Counted from the stretch's first letter, positions 36,837-57,577 are shown. The stretch is DNA of 64,000 bases from a virus (IMGVR_UViG_3300020577_006271:98684-162683), one strand, 5' to 3'. Program-made: numbers and translations. The notes: generated from the sequence alone by a model not told the origin.

Positions 36837-36883
36837 TTTCTCCATTACTTACTATATATTAAATATAATAAACAATGGAGAAA
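36837..36883 (+). promoter_or_regulatory. Late promoter enclosed in a translation-repressing hairpin
   Basis: TTTCTCCATT (36837-46) / AATGGAGAAA (36874-83) flank ACTATATATTAAAT just upstream of the HNH start. Confidence 0.6.
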
Positions 36884-36887: not shown

Positions 36888-37592
36888 ATGAATTATGAAA
36901 AAATCTACAATCAAATTATTGAACGAGCAAAGACGCGAGCATTGCAAGGTTATGGCGAAAATCATCATATTATACCAAAATGTTTAAATGGCACTAATCA
37001 TCCGGAAAATATAGCAAGATTAACCGCCAGGGAACATTTTTTAGCACATTGGCTTCTACATGAAATGTATCCAAATAATTCCGATTTACGATATGCGTTT
37101 TGGTGTATGTTTAGGAATTCAATCGGCCAGGAACGATATGTGCCATCTTCAAGAGTGTATGAATACGCTAAGATTAAGATGATTGAAGTTTGGCATAAAA
37201 TAAAGAAAACTCCGGCTGAAATAGAATCACTTAAAAAAAGATTTACTGGCACAAAATGGTATCACAATTTAGATGGTTTTAATTTTAGGGTGTTTGATGA
37301 TGATACGCGTATATTAACTGAAGGCTGGATTCCTGGTAGATTTGATGGCAAAACTATATCGAAACATGCTAATAATATAAAAGAACTTCAATATGCTGAA
37401 GGGAAACGCAGACCTGAAACGTCTAATAAAAAATGTTCAATTGATGGTAAACTGTTTGATTCGGCAAGTGAAGCCGCAAGGGAACTCGGTATAAACCAAT
37501 ATACTTTAAGATGGATTTTACAAGGCAGATTTTCGCCAAAACAAAAAGAAAAATACAAAAATTGGTATTACATAATTAATAAAAATGTTTAA
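36888..37592 (+). CDS. Free-standing HNH homing endonuclease (MobE-like)
   Basis: MNYEKIY...ENHHIIP.C..G....N...LTAREHFLAHWLL; C-terminal NUMOD1-like HTH. Confidence 0.9.
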   Translation: MNYEKIYNQIIERAKTRALQGYGENHHIIPKCLNGTNHPENIARLTAREHFLAHWLLHEMYPNNSDLRYAFWCMFRNSIGQERYVPSSRVYEYAKIKMIEVWHKIKKTPAEIESLKKRFTGTKWYHNLDGFNFRVFDDDTRILTEGWIPGRFDGKTISKHANNIKELQYAEGKRRPETSNKKCSIDGKLFDSASEAARELGINQYTLRWILQGRFSPKQKEKYKNWYYIINKNV

Positions 37593-38142
37593 CATGAATG
37601 AAATATTATCTAAAGAAGAATTCTTAGAAAAGTTAAAAACCGACAATAAATTTAATGCTAAATATGGAAGAAAGCATAAATATAAGGTAGCTCTTCATCC
37701 TTGTCATCATGAGATACAATTTAATTGCCGCCCAGGACAAAACGGAGAACATTATTTAGATCTACAATTTTCAATGCGCTCATCTGACGTTATATTGGGT
37801 CTTCCTTGGAATTTTGCATTTTATGGAATGATGCTTGAAATAATTGCTAATATTACAAATCTAATACCAGGTAAATTAACTTATTTTGGTAAGAAGGTGC
37901 ACTTGTATGACAACCAGTTTGATGCTGCCAAAGAACTCATTAACCGGACCAGCCATCGTCGCGATTTAATGTGTGAACCAAAAGCTGAAGTATATATAGA
38001 TGCAGAGCTTAAATGTGAATCATATGATTCTGCGAGTTTAACACAATTAATTAATAGTTTAAATTTAGATACTATCAAATTTTCAAATTATAAAAATTTA
38101 GGCGACCTAGAAAACCAGCCGACAATGCTAGCATATAGTTAA
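37585..38142 (+). CDS. thyA: Thymidylate synthase, C-terminal catalytic half
   Basis: ALHPCH, RSSD..LGLPWN and HLYDNQ. Confidence 0.9.
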   Translation: MFNMNEILSKEEFLEKLKTDNKFNAKYGRKHKYKVALHPCHHEIQFNCRPGQNGEHYLDLQFSMRSSDVILGLPWNFAFYGMMLEIIANITNLIPGKLTYFGKKVHLYDNQFDAAKELINRTSHRRDLMCEPKAEVYIDAELKCESYDSASLTQLINSLNLDTIKFSNYKNLGDLENQPTMLAYS

Positions 38143-38198
38143 CAATCTGTTAAATATTATTTTTTAATTGGTAATATCAACTTATCATTGTATATTTG
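38137..38198 (+). promoter_or_regulatory. TGTTAA-box / TAnnTTTG promoter
   Basis: AGTTAA 38137, TGTTAA 38148, TATATTTG 38191. Confidence 0.7.
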
Positions 38199-38221
38199 TG
38201 ATGTAATTAAAAAATAATATA

Positions 38222-38512
38222 ATGACAATATCAGAATTAACTCCAGGTTTTGTATTTTATACAGCAACGATTACTGGTTTTAATTGGTATGAGTATGTAG
38301 CTCCAATGCCAGTTAAACCGTTGACATCCCAAAATAAGTATTTTATCTTAATTGATAAACAAACTGAACGACCAATTCGTATGTATCACGTTGAATTACA
38401 ACGTTTATTGGATCAAAATTTGTTTACATTGAAAGGTTGCTTAAAAAGACAGCTTGAGTTAGCAAAAGATTGGGTTAGTTTTTTAGAGTCTGAAATTAAT
38501 AAACATGAGTAA
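38222..38512 (+). CDS. Hypothetical protein
   Basis: 96 aa ORF after the promoter. Confidence 0.55.
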   Translation: MTISELTPGFVFYTATITGFNWYEYVAPMPVKPLTSQNKYFILIDKQTERPIRMYHVELQRLLDQNLFTLKGCLKRQLELAKDWVSFLESEINKHE

Positions 38513-39200
38513 ATTATTTATCACAAGCGACACACATTTTTATCACAAGAATATAACGACCGGACTTTCCGACTGGACCGATGGTGGCCAACGAGATTTT
38601 CCAGATGAAATTAGTATGACAACCCACTTAATTAATAATATCAATGCCCAAGCAGGCAAAGATGATATTATTAGGCACGGCGGTGATTGGTCATTTGGTG
38701 GGATTAATATGTTTGTTGAAGCTAGACTTCGTATTATATGCGATGACATTCGTATTTCATTTGGTAATCATGATCATTTGTTAATGCAAAATAGGCCAAT
38801 ACCACCACAGTATAGAGATGAATGTCAAGATAGATTTGGGTTTAAATGCCATAAATTGCAGGACTTGTTCACGCAAGTTACTTTAAAACAATCATTTAAA
38901 ATTAACGGTATTCCTGCTACTCTTTCACATTATGCCGAGCGAGTGTGGGATAAATCACACGACAAAGCTATACAATTGCATGGTCATAGTCATGCCGGGT
39001 TGGAACGTATAGAACAATATTTTGGGCATAATCCTGGAGGTTTGCATCCAATTAATGAGTTCTATAATAAATATAGGACACTCGATGCAGGCATCGACAA
39101 TGCATTTAGAATTAAAGGTGAATATGTAATGTTTACCGAAGATGATATATATGAAATTTTGAGCCCACGACCATCTCTTACATTATTAGATCACCATTAA
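38505..39200 (+). CDS. Calcineurin-like metallophosphoesterase
   Basis: SDTHF.H, GD, GNHD and LHGHSH. Confidence 0.9.
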   Translation: MSKLFITSDTHFYHKNITTGLSDWTDGGQRDFPDEISMTTHLINNINAQAGKDDIIRHGGDWSFGGINMFVEARLRIICDDIRISFGNHDHLLMQNRPIPPQYRDECQDRFGFKCHKLQDLFTQVTLKQSFKINGIPATLSHYAERVWDKSHDKAIQLHGHSHAGLERIEQYFGHNPGGLHPINEFYNKYRTLDAGIDNAFRIKGEYVMFTEDDIYEILSPRPSLTLLDHH

Positions 39201-39590
39201 ACTTTTTAAGATGGGTAAACATGAATTTTTATTTTGGACCAAACTAATATTTAAATACCTGATATTAGGTATGGTCACATGGTGGACTTCTAATCATATA
39301 CATCCTATATTCCTATATATAGGATTTATGATAGCAGTGTATATGATTAACGATGACCTAATAGGCCCCAATTCAGAGTCTGGAATTAGCAATATTTATT
39401 CTTAATCTAAACCCATAGCATTGAAAGTAACTTTCTTTGGTAAATCAACCATTTATTGGTGTGTTAATCTGCTTATATTATATCTGGTTTGGCCAGATAA
39501 CTTCGTAAAGGTCTTTACAGTAATGTATGCAGTATGCCTTATATGTTTAAGTCTGTTAATTTATTTTGTAATATTTAAAAATCATTTAAA

Positions 39591-39932
39591 ATGAAAAAAT
39601 TTTTAATTTTTTCTCTATTTTCTCTTTTTTCTCTTCTTTTTGTTGGGTGTGAAGCTGTCGAACCCCTTAGTTATGGAGTTAAATACGATCCTTGTTCTTC
39701 AACCTTGTCTCGCGATAATCTAACTGTTGTGTATGGCAAATTTAATATGTGTGGAGCTTGCTGTGAAGTATCGGACTTTCCATCAACACCGCAGGTTTTA
39801 AAGATTTTGTCAGCCAACTCCGAATATTTTAGGGTGTCCGCTGGCATTGCACCTAACGTATGGTGCTATGAGCAGGTTTGCCTTGCAGAAATGTTCAAGT
39901 TACCGAAAATGTTTTGGCAAACCTGCTCATAG
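39591..39932 (+). pseudogene. N-terminal part of an SPFH/band-7 lipoprotein interrupted by an 800-bp insertion
   Basis: Lipobox FVGC; the frame rejoins ORF 40604-41287 if 39825-40624 (bounded by a TCCGAA direct repeat) is removed. Confidence 0.7.
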
Positions 39933-39944
39933 CACGTGTTATAG
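39851..39944 (+). repeat. attC-like site 1
   Basis: ACCTAAC...GTTATAG ends; perfect 20-bp inverted repeat 39863-82 / 39916-35. Confidence 0.75.
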
Positions 39945-39994
39945 CCAGTACGGTTTATTTAATTTAGAAATATTTATATATAAACATAAACAAA

Positions 39995-40423
39995 ATGAGC
40001 AAAGAAATACGAGATATGATTGATAAGGTTAAATCATTCAATCAATTTGTAAATGAAAATATAAAACGAGATGTTTATATTTATCATGGAACAGGTAAAG
40101 GACAAGCATTAAATATTCAAAGAGATGGTTATATGAAACCTAATAGAACTGGTGAAGAACAACCATCAATTAGTTTTACAAACGATTTAGATTATGCTAA
40201 ATACTATGCTAAATCAAAAGGTGGAATTAGTAAAATGTGTATTTTGAGAACAAAATTAACTGATGATTATCAACTATCACCACGAATAGTAAATAATAAA
40301 GGTGATGAATACATTACGTTCAAGAATGTACCTTCATCAGATTTGGAAGTAATGACTATGGATGGTGGTTGGCAACCATTAGATAGTTGGAATGTAATCT
40401 TTGATGAACCACAAAATGCTTAA
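39995..40423 (+). CDS. ADP-ribosyltransferase-fold (H-S-E / Tpt1-like) protein, cassette-borne
   Basis: YIYHGT...I..DG..P, SISFT.D...A..YA and EYI. Confidence 0.65.
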   Translation: MSKEIRDMIDKVKSFNQFVNENIKRDVYIYHGTGKGQALNIQRDGYMKPNRTGEEQPSISFTNDLDYAKYYAKSKGGISKMCILRTKLTDDYQLSPRIVNNKGDEYITFKNVPSSDLEVMTMDGGWQPLDSWNVIFDEPQNA

Positions 40424-40446
40424 TCGAAGCACTTCCGTAGTATTGG

Positions 40447-40543
40447 CTATAACGGACGGGGCTATGAGCAGGTTTGCCTTGCAGAAATGTTCAAGTTACC
40501 GAAAATGTTTTGGCAAACCTGCTCATAGCCCCGTCCGTTATAC
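40447..40543 (+). repeat. attC-like site 2
   Basis: CTATAAC...GTTATAC ends; perfect 31-bp inverted repeat; 69-bp core identical to site 1. Confidence 0.75.
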
Positions 40544-40603
40544 GCTGGCACGGTAAATTCAGTAGAAACTTAAATTGAAACACAAAACAAAATTTTTATT
40601 AAA

Positions 40604-41287
40604 ATGAGCGAGGCAGAATCCGAAACATCCGAAGCCAATAGTCATTTTACTGTACCAATTGGTACATCTTCTGTAGAATTTGATTATAATATTGAATTTC
40701 AGATAAAAAGTGAAGAAGATGCGAAAAAATGTTTTATGTCGTGTAAGGCCGGGAAGGATTTTAATTCGTATGTAAGAAATAACATGAAAAACAATCTAAG
40801 AGACATCTTTAAAAATGTAATGCGTAATTTTAAATCTCCAGAAGCTTTAATTGATTCAACTGGAAAATTTGAAACCTTATGCTTTATTGAAATTGAAAAA
40901 CGTCTTGCTGAAGATGGGATCACTGCGAGCCGAGCAAACCTTATTAACAACTTTCGATGGCCAGCAAACGTAGCAAAAACATTAGAAGAAATTATAACAA
41001 TAAAAGCCAAAACCATGATGGCCGAATCACAAGCCAGGGCAGCCGAGCTAGAATCAAAGGCTAGAATGATACAATCTAAAGCAAACAGTGAAGCGGATAT
41101 CATAGAAGCAGAAGCAAAAAGAAAGATTGCTGAAATTAATGCAGATATCAAGGCAACCGAAATCAAAAAAATCAATTTGTCATTGACGCCACAGTATCTT
41201 AAGATGTTAGAGATTGAAAATTATACTTATAAGACTGAATTAGTGACACCACAAGGTGTCTATCGGATCAGTCAAACAGAAGATTAA
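40604..41287 (+). CDS. SPFH/band-7 domain protein, C-terminal part with a cassette-derived start
   Basis: Prohibitin-like core, AEA-rich coiled coil and SLTPQYL; first residues MSEAE come from the insertion. Confidence 0.7.
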   Translation: MSEAESETSEANSHFTVPIGTSSVEFDYNIEFQIKSEEDAKKCFMSCKAGKDFNSYVRNNMKNNLRDIFKNVMRNFKSPEALIDSTGKFETLCFIEIEKRLAEDGITASRANLINNFRWPANVAKTLEEIITIKAKTMMAESQARAAELESKARMIQSKANSEADIIEAEAKRKIAEINADIKATEIKKINLSLTPQYLKMLEIENYTYKTELVTPQGVYRISQTED

Positions 41288-41295
41288 ACAAAATT

Positions 41296-41329
41296 AATTG
41301 CCATCAGTTGGAATATATTGATGGCAATT
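41296..41329 (+). terminator. Hairpin / probable terminator
   Basis: AATTGCCATCA / TGATGGCAATT. Confidence 0.55.
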
Positions 41330-41349
41330 CTAAACAATTTATATAAACT

Positions 41350-42375
41350 ATGTATTTCTACAAATATCCATCTATAGAAAACTTTCAAAATTTTATTAAA
41401 ACCTATAAAGGGAAACAAACCTTTGTTGGACTTACTGAAGATAAGCAACCAATATTTAAACAAAAAACATTAGATTCGGTTACATTAATTGGAACTATTA
41501 AATTGCATGGTACTAATGCTGGAGTAACTGTATTGCCTGATGGCACAATTTACATTCAGAAACGGTCCGATTCAATGTTATTGGATCCAAAATTAGGACA
41601 TATACATTTTGGATTCATGCAATTTGTTTATGAAAACAAACAGTGGTTTATTGATTTAGCTAATCAAATAGACGATAACCGGAAAGACCCAATTACATTT
41701 TTTGGAGAATGGTGTGGCCCAGGTATTCAAAAAGGTGTTGGTATATCACAAATTGATGTAAAGCGTTTTTTTATTTTTGCTATCCAAATGCAAGGAGAAT
41801 CTCCAAGTTGGCTAGATTTTTCTAATATACCATATAAAAGACCAAACGAACGTATCTGGTTTATAAATATGTTCGGAAAATATACGTTAAATGCTAATTT
41901 TAACGACGCTGTTACACTTTTACAACAATTGGATGCTATAACACTTGCTGTAGAAAATGAATGCCCTGTTGCTAAGGAATTTGGGGTATCGGGCATTGGG
42001 GAAGGCGTGGTTTGGAGTGGTAGAGATTCAGATGGAATGCATATTCAATTTAAACACAAAGGAACTAAGCATCAAAAACCAAAAGGACCAAGATCAAGCA
42101 ATCCTGATGTCAAGATTGGAAATCCGAATATTCAAAAATTTATTGATACCATTGATATCGATAACCGTTTACAACAATGTTACCATGAATTATATGAAAA
42201 TTCAATACCATCACGAAAAGAAACATCCGCCGTATTAAATTGGGTGTATGGAGATATTTGCAAAGAAGAATCTCATTTAATACAAGAATTGAGTCTAGAA
42301 CTTATAAATTTACGGCCAGCATTAATGGAAGTAATTCGAAATAAATTTTTTGATGACATAAATAATTCATTATAA
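41350..42375 (+). CDS. RNA ligase (Rnl2-like)
   Basis: KLHGTN motif I, FGEWCG, F.IF, GEGVVW and FK.KG. Confidence 0.85.
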   Translation: MYFYKYPSIENFQNFIKTYKGKQTFVGLTEDKQPIFKQKTLDSVTLIGTIKLHGTNAGVTVLPDGTIYIQKRSDSMLLDPKLGHIHFGFMQFVYENKQWFIDLANQIDDNRKDPITFFGEWCGPGIQKGVGISQIDVKRFFIFAIQMQGESPSWLDFSNIPYKRPNERIWFINMFGKYTLNANFNDAVTLLQQLDAITLAVENECPVAKEFGVSGIGEGVVWSGRDSDGMHIQFKHKGTKHQKPKGPRSSNPDVKIGNPNIQKFIDTIDIDNRLQQCYHELYENSIPSRKETSAVLNWVYGDICKEESHLIQELSLELINLRPALMEVIRNKFFDDINNSL

Positions 42376-42412
42376 TAGTGTGGTTTTGAAAATTAATAAC
42401 TATATATTAAAT

Positions 42413-42493
42413 ATGAAACATTTTTATCAATTAATATTTACACTATCGACACCGAATTACGATCGACACAAGGGCATTATAATGAAAAGCTAA
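42413..42493 (+). CDS. Putative attenuator leader peptide (26 aa)
   Basis: MKHFYQLIFTLSTPNYDRHKGIIMKS; late-promoter-like motif upstream; overlaps the antiterminator segment. Confidence 0.6.
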   Translation: MKHFYQLIFTLSTPNYDRHKGIIMKS

Positions 42494-42560
42494 TTTGAAT
42501 AATTAATTTTAACTTTTAAATGACCCTTATATAATTAAATTTGTGTAAGGGTTTTTTATT
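42470..42560 (+). terminator. Terminator with competing antiterminator
   Basis: GACCCTTATATA (42522-33) / TGTGTAAGGGTT (42542-53) plus T-run; AAGGGCATT (42470-78) can pair instead with AATGACCCTT (42519-28). Confidence 0.7.
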
Positions 42561-42622
42561 TGTTAATTTTTTGTTAATGGTGTAAAAATATTATAATATT
42601 AAATTTAAATGCTGTATATTTG
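42561..42622 (+). promoter_or_regulatory. TGTTAA-box / TAnnTTTG promoter
   Basis: TGTTAA 42561 and 42572; TATATTTG 42615. Confidence 0.7.
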
Positions 42623-42639
42623 TGACATAATTATTTAAT

Positions 42640-42876
42640 ATGCGTTGGCAGAAGAATTTTAAACAATGGTTAAATCAAAAAGTTGATATAACAATAAAGG
42701 ACCAAACATATAAAGGACGAATTTTAAAATTTGTTGGAATTAATACTTTCAAACATAAGGTAATAATTACCGGAGGACAATGTATATTTTATGTTGACAA
42801 CTGGAATGAGTTAAACATTGTTCCATTTGTAGATGAACGAATTTTTAAAGATCAAATATTTTCAGAAGAAGAATGA
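42640..42876 (+). CDS. Hypothetical protein
   Basis: 78 aa ORF after the promoter. Confidence 0.5.
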   Translation: MRWQKNFKQWLNQKVDITIKDQTYKGRILKFVGINTFKHKVIITGGQCIFYVDNWNELNIVPFVDERIFKDQIFSEEE

Positions 42877-42942
42877 TTTAAAAATTTTTAAGAAAGGGTT
42901 GAACCGAAAGTTGAAAATATTTTGAAAATAAATCCAGAAAAG

Positions 42943-42974
42943 TTTGGTAGACTGAAAAATAAGTCGTATATTTG
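42943..42974 (+). promoter_or_regulatory. Canonical Bacteroidota sigma70-type promoter
   Basis: TTTG-N20-TATATTTG. Confidence 0.7.
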
Positions 42975-43303
42975 TATTGTAATTAAAAAATAAATGTTAT
43001 GAGTACTAAAAAGAAAGGAATTTTGTGTTCCTGTAAGGAATGGGCAAAACACTTAAGAAACAAAAAGCCATTTTGGTCTTCACACAGTCAACCGCAATAT
43101 TAATTCAACCGTTTTAGGTTACATTGCAGGAGTAAACGGGTATTGAGCTGCCGTAAACCAAGCAATTATCGGACCTAAAATAGGACGTGTAGATCCAATC
43201 ATGAAGGTGGTTGTGAAGCGTTATAACAATTTGCAATTATTAATATCTTAAATGATAGTTGCTACCTTTAATATAAATGTTCTTTGAAATGCTGGAATGA
43301 AAT

Positions 43304-43385
43304 GCCGAAGTAACCGAGCTCGTCTTCGAAACGAGTATTTCCGTAATTGGAGTTGCAAATGTAGGTTCGAATCCTACCTTCGGTG
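43304..43385 (+). tRNA. Non-canonical tRNA-Arg(UCG), D-armless with long variable arm
   Basis: Acceptor GCCGAAG/CTTCGGT; anticodon arm CTCGT-CTTCGAA-ACGAG; T-arm GTAGG-TTCGAAT-CCTAC. Confidence 0.55.
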
Positions 43386-43393
43386 CTAAATAT

Positions 43394-43477
43394 TACCAAG
43401 TGGTGAAACTGGGAGACACTCCGGTCGTGGGACTGGATCATTAAGTTGAGTATAGGTTCGAATCCTACCTAGGTTAA
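43394..43477 (+). pseudogene. Degenerate tRNA
   Basis: D-arm GTG..CAC and T-arm GGTTCGAATCC present; acceptor and anticodon arms imperfect. Confidence 0.4.
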
Positions 43478-43571
43478 GAAAAATGACTTTAAGTAAAATA
43501 TATCGAAGTGATCATACGAATATTTGAAAGATGCTAACGGTTCAAATCCCCTATTGCCCACTATTTTTTAA

Positions 43572-43646
43572 CTCGGCGTAGGCTCCTTGGTGGAGAACTT
43601 GTCTGTCACACAAGTAAAATTGACGGATCGTAACCGTTCGTCGGGG
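43572..43646 (+). tRNA. tRNA-Asp(GUC)
   Basis: CTCGGCG/CGTCGGG acceptor; CTTGT-CTGTCAC-ACAAG. Confidence 0.8.
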
Positions 43647-43729
43647 CTAATGTTTATAACTGGTAAATGTGTGTTCGAAATGTTCGATATTAATTCGAAT
43701 GTTACTATTTATTATAAAGGTTGTAAATT

Positions 43730-44349
43730 TTGTTTTATTATGTATATAAAATTACAAATCTTGTCAATAATAAATTTTATATTGGAATGCACCAAACCCA
43801 AAATCTAGATGATGGTTACATGGGTTCTAGTAAAAAATTAAAATTTGATATTGAACTATTTGGTCTGGACAAATTTAAAAAAGAAATACTTTTTAATTTT
43901 GACAATTTCGAAGATATGCGTTTGTGTGAAAAGCGAATTGTTAATGCCGAATTTGTTGACCGAATTGATACTTACAACTTAAATGTTGGTGGTGGAATGG
44001 CATACCATTATATTAATAAACATAAACTGAATAATATCTGCGGACAATGTTATATTGTAAGCCGGAAATTAAAAGCATGTCCAATATATAGAAAATGGTA
44101 TTCTGACCAAGTTAAAGCAGGATTAAAAAAAGTTAATTTTCAACATAATACATTTTCAAATAAAACACATTCAGAAGAAACAAAAATGAAAATGTCATTA
44201 AACGCAAAACTGACAAATAAATCAAAGGGTGAAAAAATTCACAATTTGGCACGATGTGGATAACTAACGGTAAAGAAACCAAGAAAATAAAAAATACTGA
44301 CCTTATACCTGATGGGTATAAAAAGGGTAGAAAATATATTGCGGGATAG
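43730..44349 (+). pseudogene. GIY-YIG homing endonuclease, frameshifted near the C-terminus
   Basis: YVYKITN..N.KFYIG.H...Y.GS; the NUMOD3-like tail continues in another frame (NSQFGTMWITNG) after the A-run at ~44232. Confidence 0.75.
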
Positions 44350-44412
44350 TGTAGAGGAGACACGTGGGGCTCATAACCCCAAGGACACGGGATCGTCGGC
44401 CCGTTCCCGCTA
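44340..44412 (+). tRNA. Initiator tRNA-fMet(CAU)
   Basis: TGGGG-CTCATAA-CCCCA anticodon arm; unpaired 1:72. Confidence 0.8.
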
Positions 44413-44438
44413 CTTTTTATTTTTAATTACAACATTTC

Positions 44439-44690
44439 AGGACTAGGTTGATTCGTAGTCTTGAGATCTATTCCGGAAGATTGTTGGTGGTATATCGGCG
44501 CTAACAACCATTTAAATGCGTTAAAACTTCGAATAACACGCAACTGATATTTTAAGTTACTTAAATCGACGACCCTAAGCTATGCTGCAGCATGCCGCCA
44601 ACGGGTGTGTTTAAATATCGTACAATTAGTAACTTTATTTGGAAAGTTTGCAGATTGTGTTTAAAAACCAAAATGGTTCTTTCCTTTTTA
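44439..44690 (+). ncRNA. tmRNA-like remnant
   Basis: GATTCG near the 5' end, PK1-like segment, AATAAC-N-GCA resume-like site; SYAAA one frame off; no 3' T-arm. Confidence 0.3.
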
Positions 44691-44694
44691 ATAT

Positions 44695-44765
44695 CGAGAT
44701 GTAGCTTAATGTAGAGCACGCGGTCTGGGGCCGTGTAGGTAACCGTTCAAGTCGGTTTATCTCGA
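44695..44765 (+). tRNA. tRNA-Pro(UGG)
   Basis: CGAGATG/TATCTCG; CGCGG-TCTGGGG-CCGTG. Confidence 0.75.
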
Positions 44766-44812
44766 CTTTATTTTATTAAGGACAAAAATACTATTTATGT
44801 GTAAATATACAT

Positions 44813-45236
44813 ATGAAAATTTGTCCTAAATGTAGTGAATTTCACAATAACAATGGTAGATTCTGTTCTAGACGTTGTGCCAATGACAGATCCGGAGTTG
44901 AACTAAAAACAAAATCAATACTTTGTCAATGTGGTAATACTTTTTTTTGGAAAAAAGAATGTAGCCAAATCAAAATGCGATAAATGTAAATATCCAGAAC
45001 GATTTTGCAAAAAATGTAATATAAAATTTACCGCTACGAAAGGTTTAATGTATTACTGTTCATTTACATGCAGGAATAGCCGAACATTCACACAAGAAAG
45101 TAAAAATAAAAAATCACAAGCAAATAAATTATTTAACAAGTTATACCCAGAGAATAGAATCAAACATTCCGAACGCTTAAAAAAAACTGGAGCACCAAAT
45201 AAATTTATTGCTCCTACAAGAAATAATAGAACTTAA
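44813..45236 (+). pseudogene. Zinc-finger N-terminus of an HNH-type endonuclease, frameshifted and truncated
   Basis: MKICPKC...FCSRRCAN; frameshift in the T-run at ~44940; cut by the R-M insertion. Confidence 0.6.
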
Positions 45237-45848
45237 AAATGCAAACCAATGATTAAGGATTTCGAAGATTGTATCGACTCAGTTCGCATACCTGCAAAGA
45301 TAAACAAGAAAGATTTTCTTGTAGAAGGTACATTTCCTATCATCTCACAGGAAGAAGATTTTATAAATGGTTATTGGAACAACGAAAGTGACGTAATTAG
45401 AATTCAAAAACCCGTTGTCGTTTTTGGTGACCATACGAAAATATTTAAATACATAGATTTTGATTTTGTTCAAGGTGCTGATGGTGTAAAGGTATTGTCA
45501 CCTAAAGATTTTTTATTGCCAAAATATTTTTATTACCAGTTGCTTTCATTGCCACTTGAAAGTCTTGGTTATGCAAGGCACTATAAAATGCTAAAGGAAC
45601 AAAAAATTTATGTCCCAAATAAAGAAACTCAAATAATTATCATTGAGCAATTGGATAGAATATTTGAAAGGATTAAAACTGCTAAGGAGAACATAGAAAA
45701 GCAAGAATTATTAATTAATGAGTTTGAAACCTCTATATTGATAAATTCATTTAAACCTGAAACAGTGTGATTTTTAACATAAATCATTTAGATGAACGAA
45801 ACCGAAACAAGAGCAGAATATATTGACCCTGCATTAAAAGCAGCAGGA
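45211..45848 (+). mobile_element. Captured fragment of a type I R-M operon (probable hsdM end, hsdS, hsdR start)
   Basis: LLQEIIELKNANQ* overlaps the hsdS ATG; MNETETRAEYIDPALKAAG at 45792-45848. Confidence 0.7.
45249..45770 (+). CDS. hsdS: Half-size type I R-M specificity subunit (single TRD)
   Basis: FGDHT..FKY.DF.F..GADG.K.L...GY.RH plus conserved P...Q..I helix. Confidence 0.8.
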   Translation: MIKDFEDCIDSVRIPAKINKKDFLVEGTFPIISQEEDFINGYWNNESDVIRIQKPVVVFGDHTKIFKYIDFDFVQGADGVKVLSPKDFLLPKYFYYQLLSLPLESLGYARHYKMLKEQKIYVPNKETQIIIIEQLDRIFERIKTAKENIEKQELLINEFETSILINSFKPETV

Positions 45849-45908
45849 GAAAGTTTGGTGCAAATCCAAACCAAACGGCGAGTAGGTTTATAAATTCTCC
45901 TTCTCCAC

Positions 45909-46063
45909 GCGGTATTGGTGAAATCGGTTAGACACCTTAAAGTTTGAATCGTTTAATAATTGTATAATAAAAACGACGATACTTCTTGTAAGGAATTTTA
46001 ATAAAATGGTTTAGCGGCCAATAATAAAATAAATTCTTGCAGGTTCGAATCCTGCATATCATT
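45909..46063 (+). other. tRNA-like element with ~70-80 nt internal insertion
   Basis: Leu/Ser-type D-arm at the 5' end; GCAGG-TTCGAAT-CCTGC and acceptor strand at the 3' end. Confidence 0.4.
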
Positions 46064-46429
46064 CTAAAAGAATTACAGAATATGAGTTACAAAGAAGAAT
46101 TTTATAATAAAGTTGGTAAGTTTAATATAGATGAGCTTAAATTGTTTTTTGAAAAAGAAAAATATACCTTTGTTGATTTTAGAAACGAATACCAAAGTTG
46201 GAAATCTGAAGAAGAACAGTATAAAAAAAGATTGAATAATTTAGATAAAATAAAACAATAATAAAACACATTATGAATTTAGAAGAATTAGCCGAAATCA
46301 AGCTTGGCAAAAATACCTGAATTATATTATATTGAATATGATGGTTGTCCAGTTATGTTATCTTCTGGTAAGACAGCTTGGCATGCCATCAGACATGCTA
46401 AGGCAGCATTAAATAATGAATTTGGCTAT

Positions 46430-46501
46430 GGGTCTTTAGTGAAATTGGCATCACGTCTGATTGTTAATCAGTTATTATGGGATCGTACCCCGTAGGACCC
46501 T
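46430..46501 (+). tRNA. tRNA-Asn(GUU)
   Basis: GGGTCTT/AGGACCC; CTGA-TTGTTAA-TCAG. Confidence 0.75.
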
Positions 46502-46620
46502 CAAATGTTCATTTGCTTTTTCTAAAAGACAGCCTTGCCTTACTTGCTAAAGGGTGTAGGGGATATAGAATTAAATTGTATGCAGCAAGGTACCGCGATG
46601 GATTTGGACATTTTTAATTT

Positions 46621-46694
46621 GCTTCATATGCTGATACGGTGCAGCGCCGCTCTTGTAAAGCGGAATAGAGAGTTTTCGAGTAACTCATGAAGCT
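46621..46694 (+). tRNA. tRNA-Thr(UGU)
   Basis: GCTTCAT/ATGAAGC; CCGCT-CTTGTAA-AGCGG. Confidence 0.75.
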
Positions 46695-46702
46695 CGAAAG
46701 AC

Positions 46703-46777
46703 GGGCGAGTAGCTCAATAGGTAGAGTGGCCGACAAGGTGTTCGGCAGGATGACGGTTCGAATCCTTCCTGGTCCGT
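46703..46777 (+). pseudogene. tRNA of undetermined identity (8-nt anticodon loop)
   Basis: Canonical TAGCTCAATAGGTAGAG D-arm and GGTTCGAATCC; loop CAAGGTGT. Confidence 0.45.
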
Positions 46778-46813
46778 CTTTAATTAGCCGCTTAGTGTAA
46801 TGGCTCAGCATAA

Positions 46814-47227
46814 ATGTGTTACATACCATCAGCAAATGTAAAGTTTTCATATGATAAGATTTACAAACAGATAATTGAGTTTAGAAAAGAAAATCCATTA
46901 GATAAAGATCAATACGGAGAAAATCATCACATTATTCCACGTTCACTTGGAGGTCCAGATGATAAAAATAATTTAGTAAGATTGAGTGCAAGAGAACATT
47001 TTATTTGCCATATGTTACTTGCTGAAATGTATCCCAAAGAAACGTTCGAGTGGTATAAAATGAATCATGCTTTTATGCAAATGAAAGCCACAAGTTGCGG
47101 AAGACCAAGATACATGAACAATCGTTACTATGATTTGAAACGAAAGGATTTTTGCAGGTCAATGAAGCAAAGTAGCAACGAAGGCAGTTTATGCATCTGT
47201 AGCTCAATTGGTAGAGCGCCTGGTTGA
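46814..47227 (+). pseudogene. Truncated HNH homing endonuclease (paralog of 36888-37592)
   Basis: YGENHHIIPRSLGG...NLVRLSAREHFICHMLL; both ends fused to tRNA fragments. Confidence 0.7.
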
Positions 47228-47263
47228 AGCTGGGATGCGGGATCTCGGAATTCTCCATTACCA
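47193..47263 (+). pseudogene. Chimeric tRNA-Phe(GAA)-like
   Basis: Intact 5' half with TTGAAGC loop; non-matching 3' end. Confidence 0.4.
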
Positions 47264-47273
47264 CTTTTATAAT

Positions 47274-47345
47274 GCGATGTAAGAATTGATGCATATTCGC
47301 CAGTCTTCCAAACTGGAGTACTCGGATGGTTACCGGGATATCGCT
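47274..47345 (+). tRNA. tRNA-Gly(UCC)
   Basis: GCGATGT/ATATCGC; CCAGT-CTTCCAA-ACTGG. Confidence 0.75.
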
Positions 47346-47359
47346 CTAAAATTAATTCG

Positions 47360-47683
47360 ATGAACAGAATACCACCAGTAGATGAATTTTTTATGGAATA
47401 TTTGGGTGTAGATTGTGATTTTATGGAATCCATGAGAAACCAGTTAGATAAATGTTCAGGATTTGATTTTGGTACTATAACTGATACCATGTTAGAATTT
47501 ACCAAACTTCACGTTGAAGCTGCATTAAAGGAAGCGAGTGAAAAGGCCTACGCCCAGGGAATTGGAAGTAGTTTGACGACCAAAGATAGTTGTTTCAAAT
47601 GGACATTTGCCGGATCTATAGGTGATATAGAAATAAATAAAGCTTCAATTTTAAATTCTTATCCCTTAGCTAATATATGTTAA
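47360..47683 (+). CDS. Hypothetical protein
   Basis: 107 aa; EF.KLHVEAALKEASEKA...SILNSYPL.NI pattern. Confidence 0.6.
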   Translation: MNRIPPVDEFFMEYLGVDCDFMESMRNQLDKCSGFDFGTITDTMLEFTKLHVEAALKEASEKAYAQGIGSSLTTKDSCFKWTFAGSIGDIEINKASILNSYPLANIC

Positions 47684-47699
47684 ATTTTGATTTTTACCT

Positions 47700-47995
47700 T
47701 AGGTAGGGAACTTGCAAAGGATTTGCCGTTGGACCCGATAATAATCTCCTGTTTAAGAAGTCTACTATATCGTGTACATAAAGATACTAACAGAATGTTA
47801 GATAGGTTGAAGAAAGGATATTTGACATTCTAAATAAGTTCCAAGCAAGTGGGTTATAGTAGTCGTCAAGGTAATTCTTGCTTCAAGATAACTTGTACCC
47901 ACACGACCCTACTCTTGCTGAATATTAAGATTGATGGCCTACATTTATTGTAAAAACCTAGAGTTCTTTTTATTCAGTAAGAAAGAGGGTGCTAA
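47700..47995 (+). ncRNA. Candidate structured ncRNA
   Basis: ORF-free; nested helices 47707-13/47836-42, 47792-803/47820-31 and 47913-24/47971-82. Confidence 0.4.
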
Positions 47996-48024
47996 AATTA
48001 TAAATTTTCAGGATCGGTGGGTAT

Positions 48025-48086
48025 AGTTAATTTTTTGTTAAAGTCATTTTTAATTACTGAACTTTCAATTATTTGTTGTACATTTG
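48025..48086 (+). promoter_or_regulatory. TGTTAA-box / TAnnTTTG promoter
   Basis: AGTTAA 48025, TGTTAA 48036, TACATTTG 48079. Confidence 0.7.
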
Positions 48087-48241
48087 TTGAGTAATTAAAA
48101 ACAAAAGAAAAATGATAAATCCACAATTTTTAATCAGTGTAGATAAGGATACTAAAATATATCCTAATAAGAAAGGAAAGATACGATGAAAGTATTACTT
48201 AGAATAGAAAAGGCTTTAACCGAAGTAGAAAATAAAATATC

Positions 48242-48580
48242 ATGAAGTTAACCAATATTCAAAGAAAAGTCTTCATTAAATCAATGATTGCTACTTCAGA
48301 TAAATGGGCGCTTAGAGCCTTGCAAGTTGTTTATGATAACCAAACTTCTGAAGAGCAAGTTAGAAGAACAACTGAAGACCAAAATGGCATTGGATTTACT
48401 CAGGCAGATGCAAGATTAATGGCAGTATTTGCACAATTATTGAAGACCAAAGCTTTGACTGAGAATCAAATCACTCAGGTAAAATTGAAAATGCCTAAAT
48501 ACTGGAAGCAGATACTTCAAGCGTCAAATGTCATTAAACTAGATAATTTAATCATTCAAACAAAATTGAAAACAGCATGA
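48242..48580 (+). CDS. Conserved-looking phage hypothetical protein
   Basis: RAL..VY..QT.EEQ....T...NG.GF...DA...KY.KQ pattern. Confidence 0.65.
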   Translation: MKLTNIQRKVFIKSMIATSDKWALRALQVVYDNQTSEEQVRRTTEDQNGIGFTQADARLMAVFAQLLKTKALTENQITQVKLKMPKYWKQILQASNVIKLDNLIIQTKLKTA

Positions 48581-48750
48581 TTCACGAAACTTTAACCGCA
48601 GATACTCTACATGAAGTAGTTGCACTCAAAGATTTATATTTCAGAAATTATAATCCAGCTGGATACGGAACAACATCTACTGAACCTAAGATTATTAAAG
48701 ATAAATGGACAATTACAGTTTCCAGATTCAATTCGTGTGATTAATTACAT

Positions 48751-48824
48751 GGCCCGGTAGCCCAATAGGCAGAGGCAACGGTCTTAAACGCCGTATAGTG
48801 TAGGTTCGAGTCCTACTTGGGCTA
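48751..48824 (+). tRNA. tRNA-Leu(UAA) with short variable loop
   Basis: ACGGT-CTTAAAC-GCCGT; 5-nt variable loop; GTAGG-TTCGAGT-CCTAC. Confidence 0.75.
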
Positions 48825-48940
48825 CTCTATTTAAGCTAGTTTATGAACAGCCTAGATATTCGGTGCGATGCCGATTAATACGATTTTTATTTTTAATGAT
48901 GCAAACTTATCAGTAAGGTTAAACTGAATTCAATATTAAA

Positions 48941-49003
48941 TGTCGCAGTAAATTCATTGGGTTGATACCCCAAATGTTCCAGGTGCAAATCCTTGGTGGA
49001 CCA
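48941..49003 (+). pseudogene. tRNA-Ile(GAU) remnant
   Basis: GGG-TTGATAC-CCC anticodon arm and T-arm; 5' part lost. Confidence 0.4.
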
Positions 49004-49186
49004 AACGAGAGTCTGTAGAATTAAACATTTATAAAGATTAATCCAGAAACGTAGCATTAATATAATTTAATAGATAAACAATTAATTAAAAAGGCTGGTT
49101 ATGTCACTCATAAGAAGTAGGCGGAAGCTCTGAAATCAGAAGGTGTAACCGAAAATATTGTCACATTGAACCAGCCTTTGTTTAAT

Positions 49187-49258
49187 TGAAATGTAGTGTA
49201 ATGGTTAGCACATGAATTTTTGAAATTCATAGTTGTGGTTCGAATCCATGCATTTCAA
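49187..49258 (+). tRNA. tRNA-Gln(UUG)
   Basis: TGAAATG/CATTTCA; TGAAT-TTTTGAA-ATTCA. Confidence 0.8.
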
Positions 49259-49314
49259 CGGTATTGATACAGTGAAGACCTGTTGGTGGAATTAGAAAAA
49301 ATAAATAATTACAT

Positions 49315-49388
49315 GGTGTTTGTAGCTTAATTGGTAGAGCGCTAGGTTGTGAGTTTAGAAGGTGCCGGATCATTCCCGGTCAAACACC
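49315..49388 (+). tRNA. tRNA-His(GUG)
   Basis: G-1; GTGTTTG/CAAACAC; loop TTGTGAG; C73. Confidence 0.8.
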
Positions 49389-49566
49389 CCGAAAATAAAA
49401 ATTATGAAAAATATATTACAAACGGTGGCAAATCGAATAGTGTATATGTTACAAAATGCAAATTCAATTGAAGATGCTAACAAATTTTATCGAATGGGAT
49501 TAAATTTTGATAATTTTTGTATTAGCAGTTTTGGTCATTTTTTAGATTAATTCTACTAATTATTTT

Positions 49567-49918
49567 ATGATAAAACTTAGATCATTATTAACTGAACGGT
49601 ATGTCAATTTGTTTAAAACTGACATTGTGAAATATATTGATGAAATTTGGGAGATTCTACAAAAATCATATGCCCCTATCGGCGGATTTTATGAAAATGA
49701 TTCAGGAAGATATTAAGTTTAGCAGGTCCTGGGCAGAAGTATCCGGAGCAATGGAGCATATTTTAAGAAAAAATGGCGCTGAGCCGATTCCTAATTATAT
49801 GGCCAAAGAGCTTACTGGTAAAGATATTCTGAAATTTAATCCAGACGGATATCATTATACTCGGATGATAGCGGGTGAACCACATGAAAAAATAATATTC
49901 GGTACCGTCAATAAATAA
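49567..49918 (+). pseudogene. MIKLRSLLTE-leader protein broken by an internal deletion/frameshift
   Basis: N-part MIKLRSLLTERYVNL...QKSYAPIGGF continues in another frame as IQEDIKFSRSWAEVSG. Confidence 0.55.
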
Positions 49919-49977
49919 CATTTTATTGACACAATTATTGAATTAATTTATGTACATTTGTGAGTAAATAATTAAAT

Positions 49978-50238
49978 ATGTTAATTTATATAGCTGGGTT
50001 AAATTCAACCAAAAAGGATTGGATTGACTTAAAATTGAAAGAGTTTTCAAATGATACCTATTATTATTTCTTATTAAATGATGACATTCCGGATATAACT
50101 GAAGATGCAGTGATAATAGCCCATTCAATGGGATGCTTAAGCGCCATGCGTCTATGGGATATATATCCAGATAAGATTAAGACAATTCAATTAATCAATC
50201 CAACTAACCAAATTTTTGATTTTAATAAATTTCAATAA
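49978..50238 (+). CDS. Truncated alpha/beta hydrolase-like protein
   Basis: IIAHSMG nucleophile elbow; only 86 aa. Confidence 0.5.
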   Translation: MLIYIAGLNSTKKDWIDLKLKEFSNDTYYYFLLNDDIPDITEDAVIIAHSMGCLSAMRLWDIYPDKIKTIQLINPTNQIFDFNKFQ

Positions 50239-50246
50239 ATAAACTT

Positions 50247-50510
50247 ATGGCAAAACCGATATTTATTATAGGACTTCCTAGGGAAGAAGCCACTAAACAA
50301 CTTGATGAGTATTATGATTCTGTTCGCAAAAGTTTAGAACAGAAACTTGCACAATATTATGTCTTGGTATATTATTCAAATTCAGATGACATGGAATTCA
50401 AATGCTTTAACGATGCTGATTTCACTGATATTAAATTTGAAGAATTGAAAGCCATGATTAAAAATGAGATAATTAACCAAAACCCCGTTGACAATATTCC
50501 AGTGATATGA
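50247..50510 (+). CDS. Hypothetical protein
   Basis: 87 aa ORF. Confidence 0.55.
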   Translation: MAKPIFIIGLPREEATKQLDEYYDSVRKSLEQKLAQYYVLVYYSNSDDMEFKCFNDADFTDIKFEELKAMIKNEIINQNPVDNIPVI

Positions 50511-50700
50511 TTTTAATAGAAACCAACATTGAAATCGGCAGGTTTATACAAACATCTGCTAATGGCAATTCTGTTCGTATGATAAATGCTATAGATCTAA
50601 CTAATTTAAATTTAGGTGAGTTTGAATTAATACATTCAATGACAGATAGTCCTGAGTTTCGACTTGCCCAAACAATGATATTGAATAAATTAATGAAAAA

Positions 50701-50762
50701 TGTTAATAAAATGTTAATTCCACCACAGATCATAAATAATTGAAAAATATGTTATATATTTG
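50701..50762 (+). promoter_or_regulatory. TGTTAA-box / TAnnTTTG promoter
   Basis: TGTTAA 50701 and 50712; TATATTTG 50755. Confidence 0.7.
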
Positions 50763-51032
50763 TTGAGTAATTAAAACAATAAATATTATGACAACTTTTA
50801 AAGTCGGCACTGAAATTGAAATCAGAGAGAATCACAAACCTTTATACCAGATATTTGGTAACAAAGGTAAGATTAAAGCAATAAATACCACGTGTCAACA
50901 GTATAATCAGACTGAACGGACTGAATATTATGATGTCGAAGTTATTTCATTGCTTTCAAGAAAGATGGAAGTGATGCCAGTCAAAAAAATACATGTTATA
51001 CCACTTAAAGGGGTGGCGATACACCAAATATA

Positions 51033-51491
51033 ATGGTTGGAATATTAATTATTGATCCACCGGATGTAACACGGAAACATAATAAGCAATCCAGCTGGAA
51101 ACGAACAGCCATATTGCAATTTCCTGGAGACGAAACTGATAAAATGTGGCGTTGGTATATAAAGAAACGATATGGGTTAGAATTAAACCAACCATTAAGG
51201 CAATGCCACATAACAATTGTCAATGATAGATATCAGGACACTGCAAAATGGAATGAATTTAAAAGTAAATTTAACCATACTAACATTAATATTGATGTTA
51301 GTCGGGAACTTCGCAGTAATGGAGAACATTGGTGGTTAAGAGTTGATGAAAATGAAGAAATTAAAGCCATTAGGACATTTTTAAATTTAGGCGAGCCCTT
51401 TTTTAAATACCATTTGACTATTGGTCTAGCAAACTCCAGAAATATTAAACATTCAGAATATATTTTAAGACAAATTTTAAATTATTATTAA
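51033..51491 (+). CDS. 2H phosphoesterase-family protein
   Basis: Two HxT motifs (CHITIV, YHLTIG). Confidence 0.7.
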   Translation: MVGILIIDPPDVTRKHNKQSSWKRTAILQFPGDETDKMWRWYIKKRYGLELNQPLRQCHITIVNDRYQDTAKWNEFKSKFNHTNINIDVSRELRSNGEHWWLRVDENEEIKAIRTFLNLGEPFFKYHLTIGLANSRNIKHSEYILRQILNYY

Positions 51492-51492
51492 T

Positions 51493-51807
51493 ATGCAAAC
51501 GTTTATAATCGTCGTAGTTGCAGTTTTTGCTTTAGGAGCATTAATTAATGAATTATTATCAGCTTTCAACATCAGTAAACCATATCCAGAGATTTTTGGA
51601 ACTTTGTTTTTTACTATATCGACTGTCTTAGGAATTTTAGTAATTTCTAAATTAATGTTCGTATTGTTGGCACTGGCATTTGTACACCAGGAAAATAAGT
51701 TACACTGGGATAAATATGCATCATATCGCACATTTGATTATACGGTTTGTATATTAGGGTTTGGTTATCAATTATATTCGATTTATCAATATATCTATTC
51801 TTTATAA
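51493..51807 (+). CDS. Membrane protein
   Basis: Three hydrophobic helices. Confidence 0.55.
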   Translation: MQTFIIVVVAVFALGALINELLSAFNISKPYPEIFGTLFFTISTVLGILVISKLMFVLLALAFVHQENKLHWDKYASYRTFDYTVCILGFGYQLYSIYQYIYSL

Positions 51808-51829
51808 ACGGCAACTTTACTAATATGGT

Positions 51830-51905
51830 CGGGTACTCAATATTGAATCTCGAGTTAGGTCTGCAAAACCTAATTAATGTGAGTTTGAATTTCACCCCGG
51901 CTTCA
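51830..51905 (+). pseudogene. tRNA-Cys(GCA) remnant
   Basis: TAGGT-CTGCAAA-ACCTA and T-arm; acceptor halves do not pair. Confidence 0.45.
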
Positions 51906-51915
51906 AAAGTCAATC

Positions 51916-51990
51916 GCATCTGTGGCGCAACGGTTTAGCGCAATTCACTCATAATGAAGAGGTTCTGGGTTCGAATTCCAAATTTCCTAC
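51916..51990 (+). pseudogene. Chimeric tRNA-Met/Ile2(CAU)
   Basis: D-arm and TTCA-CTCATAA-TGAA present; 3' acceptor strand does not match the 5' strand. Confidence 0.45.
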
Positions 51991-51991
51991 T

Positions 51992-52372
51992 ATGATTAAA
52001 TTCAAAAATATATTAACTGAATCAAAAACTATTCAGCAAATTATAAAAGAAATACCTAATTATATTGATAATTTAGAATGTGACGGAGCTACAAGAGACA
52101 TACATTATATTTTAGATAAAAATAATATAAACCATTCTGTATTTACTGGAAAAGTTGAACATAAAGGTGAAACTGTAATACCATTGCATTATTGGATACA
52201 ATTACCTTCAATGCAAATAATAGATTTTAAAGCAAGAATGTGGGTAGGAAATAAAGCCCCGAACGGATTATTTAATGACGGAACAACTAATTATAATTAC
52301 ATTGGCAAGAAAATAAATATGCCGATGAATGATATGTTATTTATGATATTGACAGGAAATATGTATGATTAA
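51992..52372 (+). CDS. Transglutaminase/papain-like protein with MIKFKNILTE leader
   Basis: C...HYW...D triad-like spacing. Confidence 0.5.
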   Translation: MIKFKNILTESKTIQQIIKEIPNYIDNLECDGATRDIHYILDKNNINHSVFTGKVEHKGETVIPLHYWIQLPSMQIIDFKARMWVGNKAPNGLFNDGTTNYNYIGKKINMPMNDMLFMILTGNMYD

Positions 52373-53570: not shown

Positions 53571-53632
53571 TGTTAATAATTTGTTAATGACCGTCAAATA
53601 ATCCGAAATTAATTAATTTCTTTGTATATTTG
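53571..53632 (+). promoter_or_regulatory. TGTTAA-box / TAnnTTTG promoter
   Basis: TGTTAA 53571 and 53582; TATATTTG 53625. Confidence 0.7.
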
Positions 53633-53650
53633 TTTGTTAAATAAAAAGGA

Positions 53651-54172
53651 ATGAAGAAATATGTAGTTTTAGATGTTGAAGGGGATGGTCCAGTTCCAGG
53701 TTTGTTTTCAATGGTTTGTTTCGGAGCAGTAATTTACTCTGATAAACTTGACAAAACATTTTATGGAAAGACAAAACCAATTGTTGACAACTTTAAAGAA
53801 AGTTCATTAGCAATTTCAGGTTTTACAAGAGAGGAACATGAAGGGTTTGATGATCCGGAAACTGTAATTAGAAACTTTGCAAATTGGTTAATTGAAAACG
53901 GAATCACTGAACCGGTTTTAATAAGTGACAATCCAGGTTTCGACGCAGCATGGATGAATTACTACTTTCACAGATACTTAGGTTATAATCCATTCGGAAG
54001 TACTTCGAGGAGAATAGGAGATTTGTTTTGTGGAATGGAAAAGGATATGAGATTTGATTGGAAGCAGTACAGAAAAACAATACACGATCACAATCCGGTA
54101 AATGATGCAATTGGTAACGCAGAAGCATTATTAGTACTTGAAAAGAAGTACGGAATGATTAACTTAAAATAA
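53651..54172 (+). CDS. DEDDh 3'-5' exo(ribo)nuclease
   Basis: DVEGDGP, SDN.GFD and HNPVNDA.GNAEA. Confidence 0.8.
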   Translation: MKKYVVLDVEGDGPVPGLFSMVCFGAVIYSDKLDKTFYGKTKPIVDNFKESSLAISGFTREEHEGFDDPETVIRNFANWLIENGITEPVLISDNPGFDAAWMNYYFHRYLGYNPFGSTSRRIGDLFCGMEKDMRFDWKQYRKTIHDHNPVNDAIGNAEALLVLEKKYGMINLK

Positions 54173-54182
54173 TTTTATATTT

Positions 54183-55116: not shown

Positions 55117-55142
55117 TAGGGTAGTAATTAAAAATAATTAAA

Positions 55143-56243: not shown

Positions 56244-56273
56244 TTTTATTTTTAATTACACATATTTTATTTT

Positions 56274-57565: not shown

Positions 57566-57577
57566 TCGGAATTATTA

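Follow-up and report, generated by a model that had tools for sequence, protein, structure and literature searches.

At positions 42398-42560 of the window, which is the whole 64,000-nt stretch of viral DNA that was analyzed, the plus strand carries a compact unit composed of a late-type promoter motif, a 26-codon open reading frame (ORF), and an intrinsic terminator. We favor reading this unit as a ribosome-sensing transcription attenuator, which would act on a probably leaderless late transcript at the head of a tRNA module, and put the case for this reading at about evenly balanced. Computational analysis of the window and of related phages establishes the elements of the unit, their conservation, and two folds of nearly equal energy. 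What looks like the anatomy of an attenuator holds across four lineages, in that the length of the ORF, the position of its stop codon, and the pairing of its 3′ end with an arm of the terminator are all kept.

The window corresponds to bases 98684-162683 of a 162,683-bp IMG/VR virus record (88% complete), with a G+C content of about 31%. Because the record encodes tail sheath, tape measure, and baseplate wedge proteins, the phage can be classed as a myovirus. Minus-strand structural genes occupy the first part of the genome, and a plus-strand block contains the replication and nucleotide-metabolism genes, the gene of an RNA ligase 2, and then the tRNA region. The sequence points to a host of the Bacteroidota type. 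Genes are preceded by −7 elements of the form TAHHTTTG, which is the −7 promoter consensus of Bacteroidota (PMC6847099), 8-mers of the TGTATATTTG type are enriched upstream of genes, and GGAGG or Shine-Dalgarno motifs are absent ahead of the gene starts that were inspected. A further pointer to such a host comes from the public sequencing runs whose contigs contain the stretch 41900-43300, as they sample wastewater, activated sludge, and fresh water. Four wastewater or aquatic runs show 100% identity in the leader and thus provide no new variants. In the window, as in the related contig L050, the last gene before the unit codes for an RNA ligase 2-type enzyme (41350-42375, plus strand; Pfam PF09414, E 3e-11), whose phage homologs are annotated as RNA ligase 2, and in L004, L007, and L048 an extra gene of 178 aa lies between the ligase and the unit. 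A conserved metallophosphoesterase gene is found a few genes upstream of the unit, and together with the adjoining ligase it makes an RNA-repair setting plausible.

Contigs of relatives were collected by homology to two proteins, the RNA ligase and the 78-aa protein encoded downstream of the unit. Four lineages carry the unit: the window with L001, a 99%-identical strain whose leader is identical; L050 (L050:2605-2765), with the same gene order as the window; L004 (L004:5593-5753); and the pair L007/L048 (L007:4284-4449 and L048:2290-2456). The RNA ligases of the other lineages are 57-63% identical to that of the window. L002, L003, L008, L049, L051-L053, and L059 were left out, either because the contig stops short or because its genes are ordered differently, and scans of IMG/VR for further relatives (by protein, by protein alignment, and by two DNA patterns) returned only a near-identical contig. 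A preliminary description of the unit had pointed to similar leaders with covarying stems in related phages as a way to assess it. The layout is indeed kept in all four lineages: in each, the late motif and the ATG open an ORF of similar length that has a CCG codon and, among its last codons, a G-rich patch; the stop codon is part of an AU-rich hairpin, and the terminator is followed by a pair of TTGTTAA boxes and by a host-type promoter. The peptide and the sequence of the pairing differ. The conserved terminator hairpin has three compensatory pairs between clades. The upstream neighbor of the unit varies among lineages; its downstream company does not, and consists of the host-type promoter, small basic-protein genes, a gene of 70-78 aa, and tRNAs.

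In two other contigs, L005 and L006, a 52-nt deletion between AGCATAA repeats (L005:5590-5620 and L006:2850-2880, compared with L007:4230-4310) removes the late motif and the ATG of the leader and makes the 178-aa gene three codons longer. From the terminator onward nothing is changed, and these variants are apparently viable.

The late-type promoter motif, AACTATATATT, is found at 42398-42408, and its 8-mer TATATATT ends 4 nt before the ATG. The label "late-type" was proposed at the outset from the motif, and the genomic distribution bears it out. The motif family AACTA[AT][AT]TA[TA] has 39 copies in the 162.7-kb genome, against 15.7 expected, mostly ahead of minus-strand structural genes, including those for the tail sheath, the tape measure, the baseplate wedge, and a head-decoration-like protein. 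The motif of the leader is kept in L050, L004, L007, and L048, at a distance of 4-5 nt from the ATG. This distance equals the spacing between the −7 element and the transcription start in Flavobacterium johnsoniae (PMC6847099), and hence the late transcript probably begins at, or adjoining, the A of the leader ATG, which would make it leaderless. Some structural genes, with the motif only 2 nt from the ATG, do not fit the geometry of F. johnsoniae. A near-copy of the late motif (ACTATATATTAAATATA) is found at 36851-36867, just ahead of an HNH homing-endonuclease gene (36888-37592, PHROG 655) that splits the thymidylate synthase gene according to the initial reading; late expression of this endonuclease would recall T4.

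The leader ORF (42413-42493, plus strand) has 26 codons, from the ATG at 42413 to the TAA at 42491-42493. As originally described, it has no run of a single residue, since 15 different residues occur in it and CTA, TCG, CCG, CGA, and ATA are among its codons. The corresponding ORFs have 25 codons in L050 (L050:2620-2697), 23 in L004 (L004:5608-5679), and 24 in L007 and L048 (L007:4299-4373 and L048:2305-2379). The ATG is invariant across the four lineages, and the bodies of the ORFs are almost unalignable. The peptide is conserved neither in sequence nor in character, as it is hydrophobic in the window, acidic in L007, and polar in L050. The leaders of L007 and L048, of about 120 nt, show 10 differences, as against four in the preceding 2 kb; the reading frame is open in both, and the terminator is identical. 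The ORF accounts for nine substitutions, about seven of which are nonsynonymous, and dN/dS carries no information on purifying selection here. Hence, the body of the ORF appears free to vary, and its frame, its end, and the flanking signals are kept. A kept frame with an unconserved peptide fits an ORF that would act in cis. Within the ORF body, the four lineages share a single codon, the proline codon CCG (42452-42454), a minority codon that represents 13% of the proline codons and that lies 15-17 nt upstream of the antiterminator strand (see following); a YCCGRA patch in the ORF is also conserved. The CCG codon is a candidate stall site, and a ribosome paused there would leave the G-rich strand at the end of the ORF free.

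The intrinsic terminator (42522-42557, plus strand) is present as reported, with a 13-bp stem (arms at 42522-42534 and 42541-42553), a 6-nt loop, and a T6 run at 42552-42557. Its folding energy is −17.7 kcal/mol (z = −6.3), and none of 200 shuffled sequences folds as well. The genome contains about six clear terminators, and this one is alone among them in having a late motif within 300 nt upstream. Between the ORF and the terminator lies the inner AU-rich hairpin (42486-42510), with the stop codon (42491-42493) in its 5′ strand. A search of 38000-58000 with cmscan against Rfam 15, at E values up to 1, gave no match at 42398-42560, the matches in this range being tRNAs and chance hairpins.

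Two TTGTTAA boxes (42559-42580, plus strand) directly follow the terminator and are kept in all relatives. The succession of a terminator, two TTGTTAA boxes about 13 nt apart, and a TAnnTTTG promoter 40-60 nt further on recurs on unrelated Bacteroidota-like metagenome contigs, for example L014, L017, L021, L025, L026, L031, L037, and L042. A DNA-pattern scan of metagenomes found 32 contigs with this layout, the boxes being required by the pattern itself, and none of the 32 carries the leader of the window. The boxes may be an upstream promoter element or the site of a regulator. In runs X15 and X16, which come from different studies, contigs break exactly after the U-run (42559/42560, and also at 42595) and continue into unrelated sequence that is richer in G+C; in other strains, the site behind the terminator thus appears to be a point of insertion or a junction between mosaic segments. 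Similarly, L007 and L048 are mosaic from L007:4475 onward, directly after the terminator, the boxes, and the promoter, which suggests that conserved regulatory modules may serve as recombination junctions.

The central feature of the unit is the complementarity between the 3′ end of the ORF and the terminator. The best RNAduplex site in the ORF for pairing with the 5′ arm of the terminator corresponds to codons 20-22 (AAGGGCATT, 42470-42478; −10.0 kcal/mol), and its partner (AATGACCCTT, 42519-42528) overlaps the first 7 nt of this arm. The pairing that had been proposed for these codons thus exists in the form of 9 bp with one bulged A (AAGGGCAUU / AAUGaCCCUU), and it is better than expected from shuffled sequences (p = 0.002) or from random genome segments (p = 0.046). 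Each of the four lineages has its strongest match to the 5′ arm of the terminator 56-61 nt after the ATG, within the last 4-8 codons. The pairing is nevertheless realized in three different registers, as L050 (AUAUuGGGGUC / GACCCUuAUAU; −12.8 kcal/mol, p 0.008), L004 (GGAUUAAG / CUUAAUCC), and L007/L048 (GGAaAGGG / CCCUUaaUCC) use another part of the arm or another register. Duplex energies range from −9.1 to −12.8 kcal/mol, with p-values of 0.008-0.05 for each lineage against random genome segments, which are not independent and should not be multiplied because the lineages share ancestry. Three of the four lineages simply retain a GGG/CCC core; the re-creation of the pairing in different registers, on the other hand, argues for selection. 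As the MAFFT alignment of the leaders is noisy in the ORF body and the helix registers differ, each lineage was analyzed separately. Another pairing, of 8 bp between the start of the L007 ORF and the 3′ arm of the terminator, was attributed to chance; it is lost in L048.

When the nascent RNA is cut before the 3′ arm of the terminator, the minimum free energy (MFE) fold contains the outer helix and the inner hairpin in all five sequences, always with the stop codon in the 5′ strand of the inner hairpin. It had been suggested that a ribosome reaching the stop would mask the pairing strand. With an assumed ribosome footprint, masking at the stop codon eliminates the outer helix in L004, L007, and L048 but only weakens it in the window and in L050, so that the suggestion holds fully for the former and in part for the latter. 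In the window, the masking is partial because the stop codon is 13 nt beyond the pairing strand. A ribosome placed at codon 10 leaves the outer helix intact. The preliminary description had also called for folding both conformers, and these turn out to be nearly equal in energy: the gap between the non-terminator and the terminator folds is +5.5, +5.1, +1.7, −1.7, and +1.2 kcal/mol in the five sequences, as computed for 37 °C, from which the growth temperature of the host may differ. No 1:2 anti-antiterminator pairing with the G-rich strand was found in these folds, some of which have small hairpins near the CCG codon. Hence, the untranslated RNA is predicted to read through by default.

The promoter, the ORF, and the terminator also make a complete unit by themselves, as one would expect of a stand-alone small late gene, the alternative that survives best. 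Its product would be an RNA of about 145 nt ended by a constitutive terminator, either noncoding or coding for a fast-evolving micro-protein such as a counter-defense peptide. The terminator would also close the RNA ligase operon and shield the next promoter, and the alternative pairing would form only in passing while the RNA folds and would regulate nothing. The length of the ORF is kept while its peptide diverges fast, as in arms-race peptides, the unit can be lost (L005/L006), and the terminator fold wins the full-length MFE in four of the five sequences. However, the peptides are alike in neither sequence nor character, and a small gene leaves unexplained that a complement of the terminator arm has been re-created in three registers at the same place, that the stop is always in the inner hairpin, and that the two folds are nearly equal in energy. 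We regard a small late gene as unlikely, although it deserves real weight.

Chance is a further alternative, with an ordinary terminator ending the upstream operon, an accidental ORF, and a coincidental complementarity of G-rich and C-rich segments. About 19% of the nongenic ATGs of the window phage genome open an ORF of at least 23 codons, only 4.2% of the nongenic ATGs giving one of 23-26 codons; the other reading frames of the leader spacer are also fairly open. The single duplex p-values are only about 0.01-0.05, upstream shuffles of the same sequence pair nearly as well in L007/L048 (p about 0.2), and the lineages are related. Yet the ATG spacing, the ORF length, the stop in the inner hairpin, and the position of the pairing are jointly kept in four lineages whose ORF body has diverged almost to randomness, and L004 pairs through another part of the arm. 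If random genome segments are substituted for the sequence upstream of the terminator, the energy gap between the folds is 7.0-10.5 kcal/mol, and all five observed gaps fall within the lowest 0-4% of this null (p = 0.043, 0.020, 0.015, 0 of 400 draws, and 0.028). These joint regularities make chance improbable.

Least probable of all is a switch with an incidental ORF, set not by the ribosome but by a phage or host protein that binds RNA, by a small ligand, or by a factor of processive antitermination that acts at the late promoter, as lambda Q does at PR′-tR′. In its favor are the two well-supported folds, a conserved YCCGRA patch that could be a binding site, and the short distance of about 150 nt within which the late promoter meets a strong terminator, in a way that resembles lambda PR′/6S RNA/tR′. 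Against it, no Q-type family (PF06530, PF03589) is found in the 162.7-kb record, which is 88% complete and in which controls matched, the unit has no Rfam match at E values up to 1, and the invariant ATG, the kept ORF length, and the placement of the stop go unexplained.

If the unit is a ribosome-sensing attenuator, for which we infer where transcription starts, that the ORF is translated, and which way the switch responds, it could work as follows. Late in infection, the RNA polymerase would start at the late-type promoter, on or next to the A of the ATG, and a ribosome would load on the leaderless RNA once its 5′ end emerges. As the RNA grows, the G-rich last codons (42470-42478) would pair with the first half of the terminator (42519-42528). 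The inner hairpin with the stop codon would hold this antiterminator helix, and the resulting fold would compete with the 13-bp terminator. A ribosome translating smoothly to the stop would cover the G-rich strand and melt the inner hairpin, after which the terminator could form and an RNA of about 145 nt would be released. In the absence of a ribosome, or if it were delayed in the first 14-17 codons, the antiterminator would persist and transcription would read through to the small genes and to the tRNA region beyond them. Transcripts that originate in the RNA ligase operon would be subject to the same switch.

The tRNA region (43296-54255, plus strand) is the presumed target of read-through. 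It contains 12 tRNA genes (ARAGORN, Rfam), with homing-endonuclease and other genes interspersed, among which Pfam identifies GIY-YIG and HNH endonucleases. The first tRNA (43296) is about 740 nt past the terminator, from which it is separated by two genes for small proteins and by two host-type promoters. These promoters had been noticed early on, and both match TAHHTTTG: the −7 element TATATTTG is found at 42615-42622, before the 78-aa gene (42640-42876), and a second time at 42967-42974, before the 34-aa gene (42999-43103) and the tRNA region, both on the plus strand. Because these two promoters follow the terminator, the tRNAs do not depend on read-through, and with promoters and small genes ahead of the tRNAs the switch could govern only late or upstream-derived transcription.

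The preliminary description went further and took depletion of tRNAs, for example by host anticodon nucleases, as the signal sensed. This specific claim finds no direct support. Codons that the phage tRNAs read are not significantly overrepresented in the leader (12 of 26, versus a baseline of 36.5%; p 0.20), and its residues are not matched to these tRNAs at the amino-acid level either (p 0.13-0.5). In addition, the leader is unchanged in L001 although this strain carries a tRNA-Glu and a tRNA-Tyr that are missing from the window. The host-type promoters of the downstream genes and the loss of the motif and the start codon in L005/L006 likewise lend the claim no support. Because it has no run of regulatory codons, the leader would report the general speed of translation. 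One may then conceive of a sensor of translation failure in general, in which defenses that cleave tRNAs or block ribosomes would slow the leaderless test ORF, and read-through would resupply tRNAs and the products of neighboring genes, alongside repair by the RNA ligase and the phosphoesterase. We consider this extension of the attenuator quite unlikely.

The tRNA array differs between close relatives. In L001, the tRNA-Glu(TTC) and tRNA-Tyr(GTA) genes directly follow the 34-aa gene (L001:5750-5960) and are absent at the corresponding place in the window (43085-43100), and the C-terminus of the 34-aa protein differs between the two, in what looks like a recent deletion or insertion within the array. 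ARAGORN also predicts a tRNA with a four-base anticodon (aggt) at 46702-46778 and an unusually long tRNA-Arg(TCG) of 91 nt at 43296-43386, to which Rfam gives only 38 bits; these two tRNAs may be aberrant or specialized. Upstream of the unit, a long and nearly perfect hairpin of about 90 nt (40450-40540), with chance-level Rfam matches to miRNA precursor models, is one of the paired hairpins around 39825-40624 that were initially read as attC-like.

If the unit is an attenuator, the phage would monitor the decoding capacity of its host in late infection and adjust the transcription of its tRNA module, which would bear on current studies of the defense systems that target tRNAs and of the reasons why phages carry tRNAs (for example, PMC10264068 and PMC11555353). 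It would also provide a compact switch of about 150 nt usable in Bacteroidota genetics. Should the unit be no more than a small late gene and its terminator, there is nothing unusual about it.

That ribosomes mediate attenuation in amino-acid operons and in some resistance genes is textbook knowledge. In the published literature, we found no ribosome-mediated attenuator in a phage, before tRNA genes, or on a leaderless late transcript in a Bacteroidota system. The general model, attenuation mediated by the ribosome on a leader peptide, is set out in PMC1183508. Like trpL, hisL, thrL, ilvL, and pheL, the phage unit has a short ORF ahead of an intrinsic terminator and an antiterminator that uses the 5′ arm of the latter. 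As in the trp and his leaders, the stop is placed such that a terminating ribosome would block the antiterminator. The antiterminator of the trp attenuator is weaker than its terminator, and this is also the case in the window (about −10 versus −17.7 kcal/mol). Unlike the trp and his leaders, the phage leader has no run of regulatory codons; no 1:2 pause or anti-antiterminator hairpin was recognized in it, and its pairing strand is inside the ORF and not after it. It also differs from them in its late promoter, in its probably leaderless transcript, in a presumed host lineage, Bacteroidota, that does without Shine-Dalgarno sequences, and in being followed by genes for tRNAs and small proteins instead of biosynthetic enzymes.

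A second point of comparison is given by the leader ORFs mgtL and mgtP of Salmonella (mgtA, mgtCBR), which contain proline codons and whose translation selects between stem-loops (PMC3641672). The single conserved rare proline codon (CCG) of the phage leader is similarly well placed as a candidate stall, but it is one codon and not a cluster, and the sequences are unrelated. The arrangement of promoter and terminator has a parallel within phages. In lambda, the late promoter PR′ is followed about 150-200 nt further on by the strong terminator tR′, and the short 6S RNA is made unless Q overrides termination. The late promoter of our unit is likewise soon followed by a strong terminator, whereas the phage has no detected Q-family protein, its late structural genes are served by promoters of their own on the opposite strand, and the unit contains a conserved, translated-looking ORF and an antiterminator fold.

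The bmrB-bmrCD and vmlR leaders of Bacillus, found by Term-seq ahead of resistance genes, sense the inhibition of translation in general. Like them, the phage leader lacks amino-acid-specific codons, and an early slowing of the ribosome would favor the antiterminator. They differ in responding to drugs, in controlling resistance genes, and in belonging to firmicutes, whereas the unit described here is borne by a phage, stands before tRNA genes, and has no known stalling motif. By analogy, the logic of the unit thus seems closer to that of the leaders that respond to ribosome stalling in general than to that of the trp and his type.
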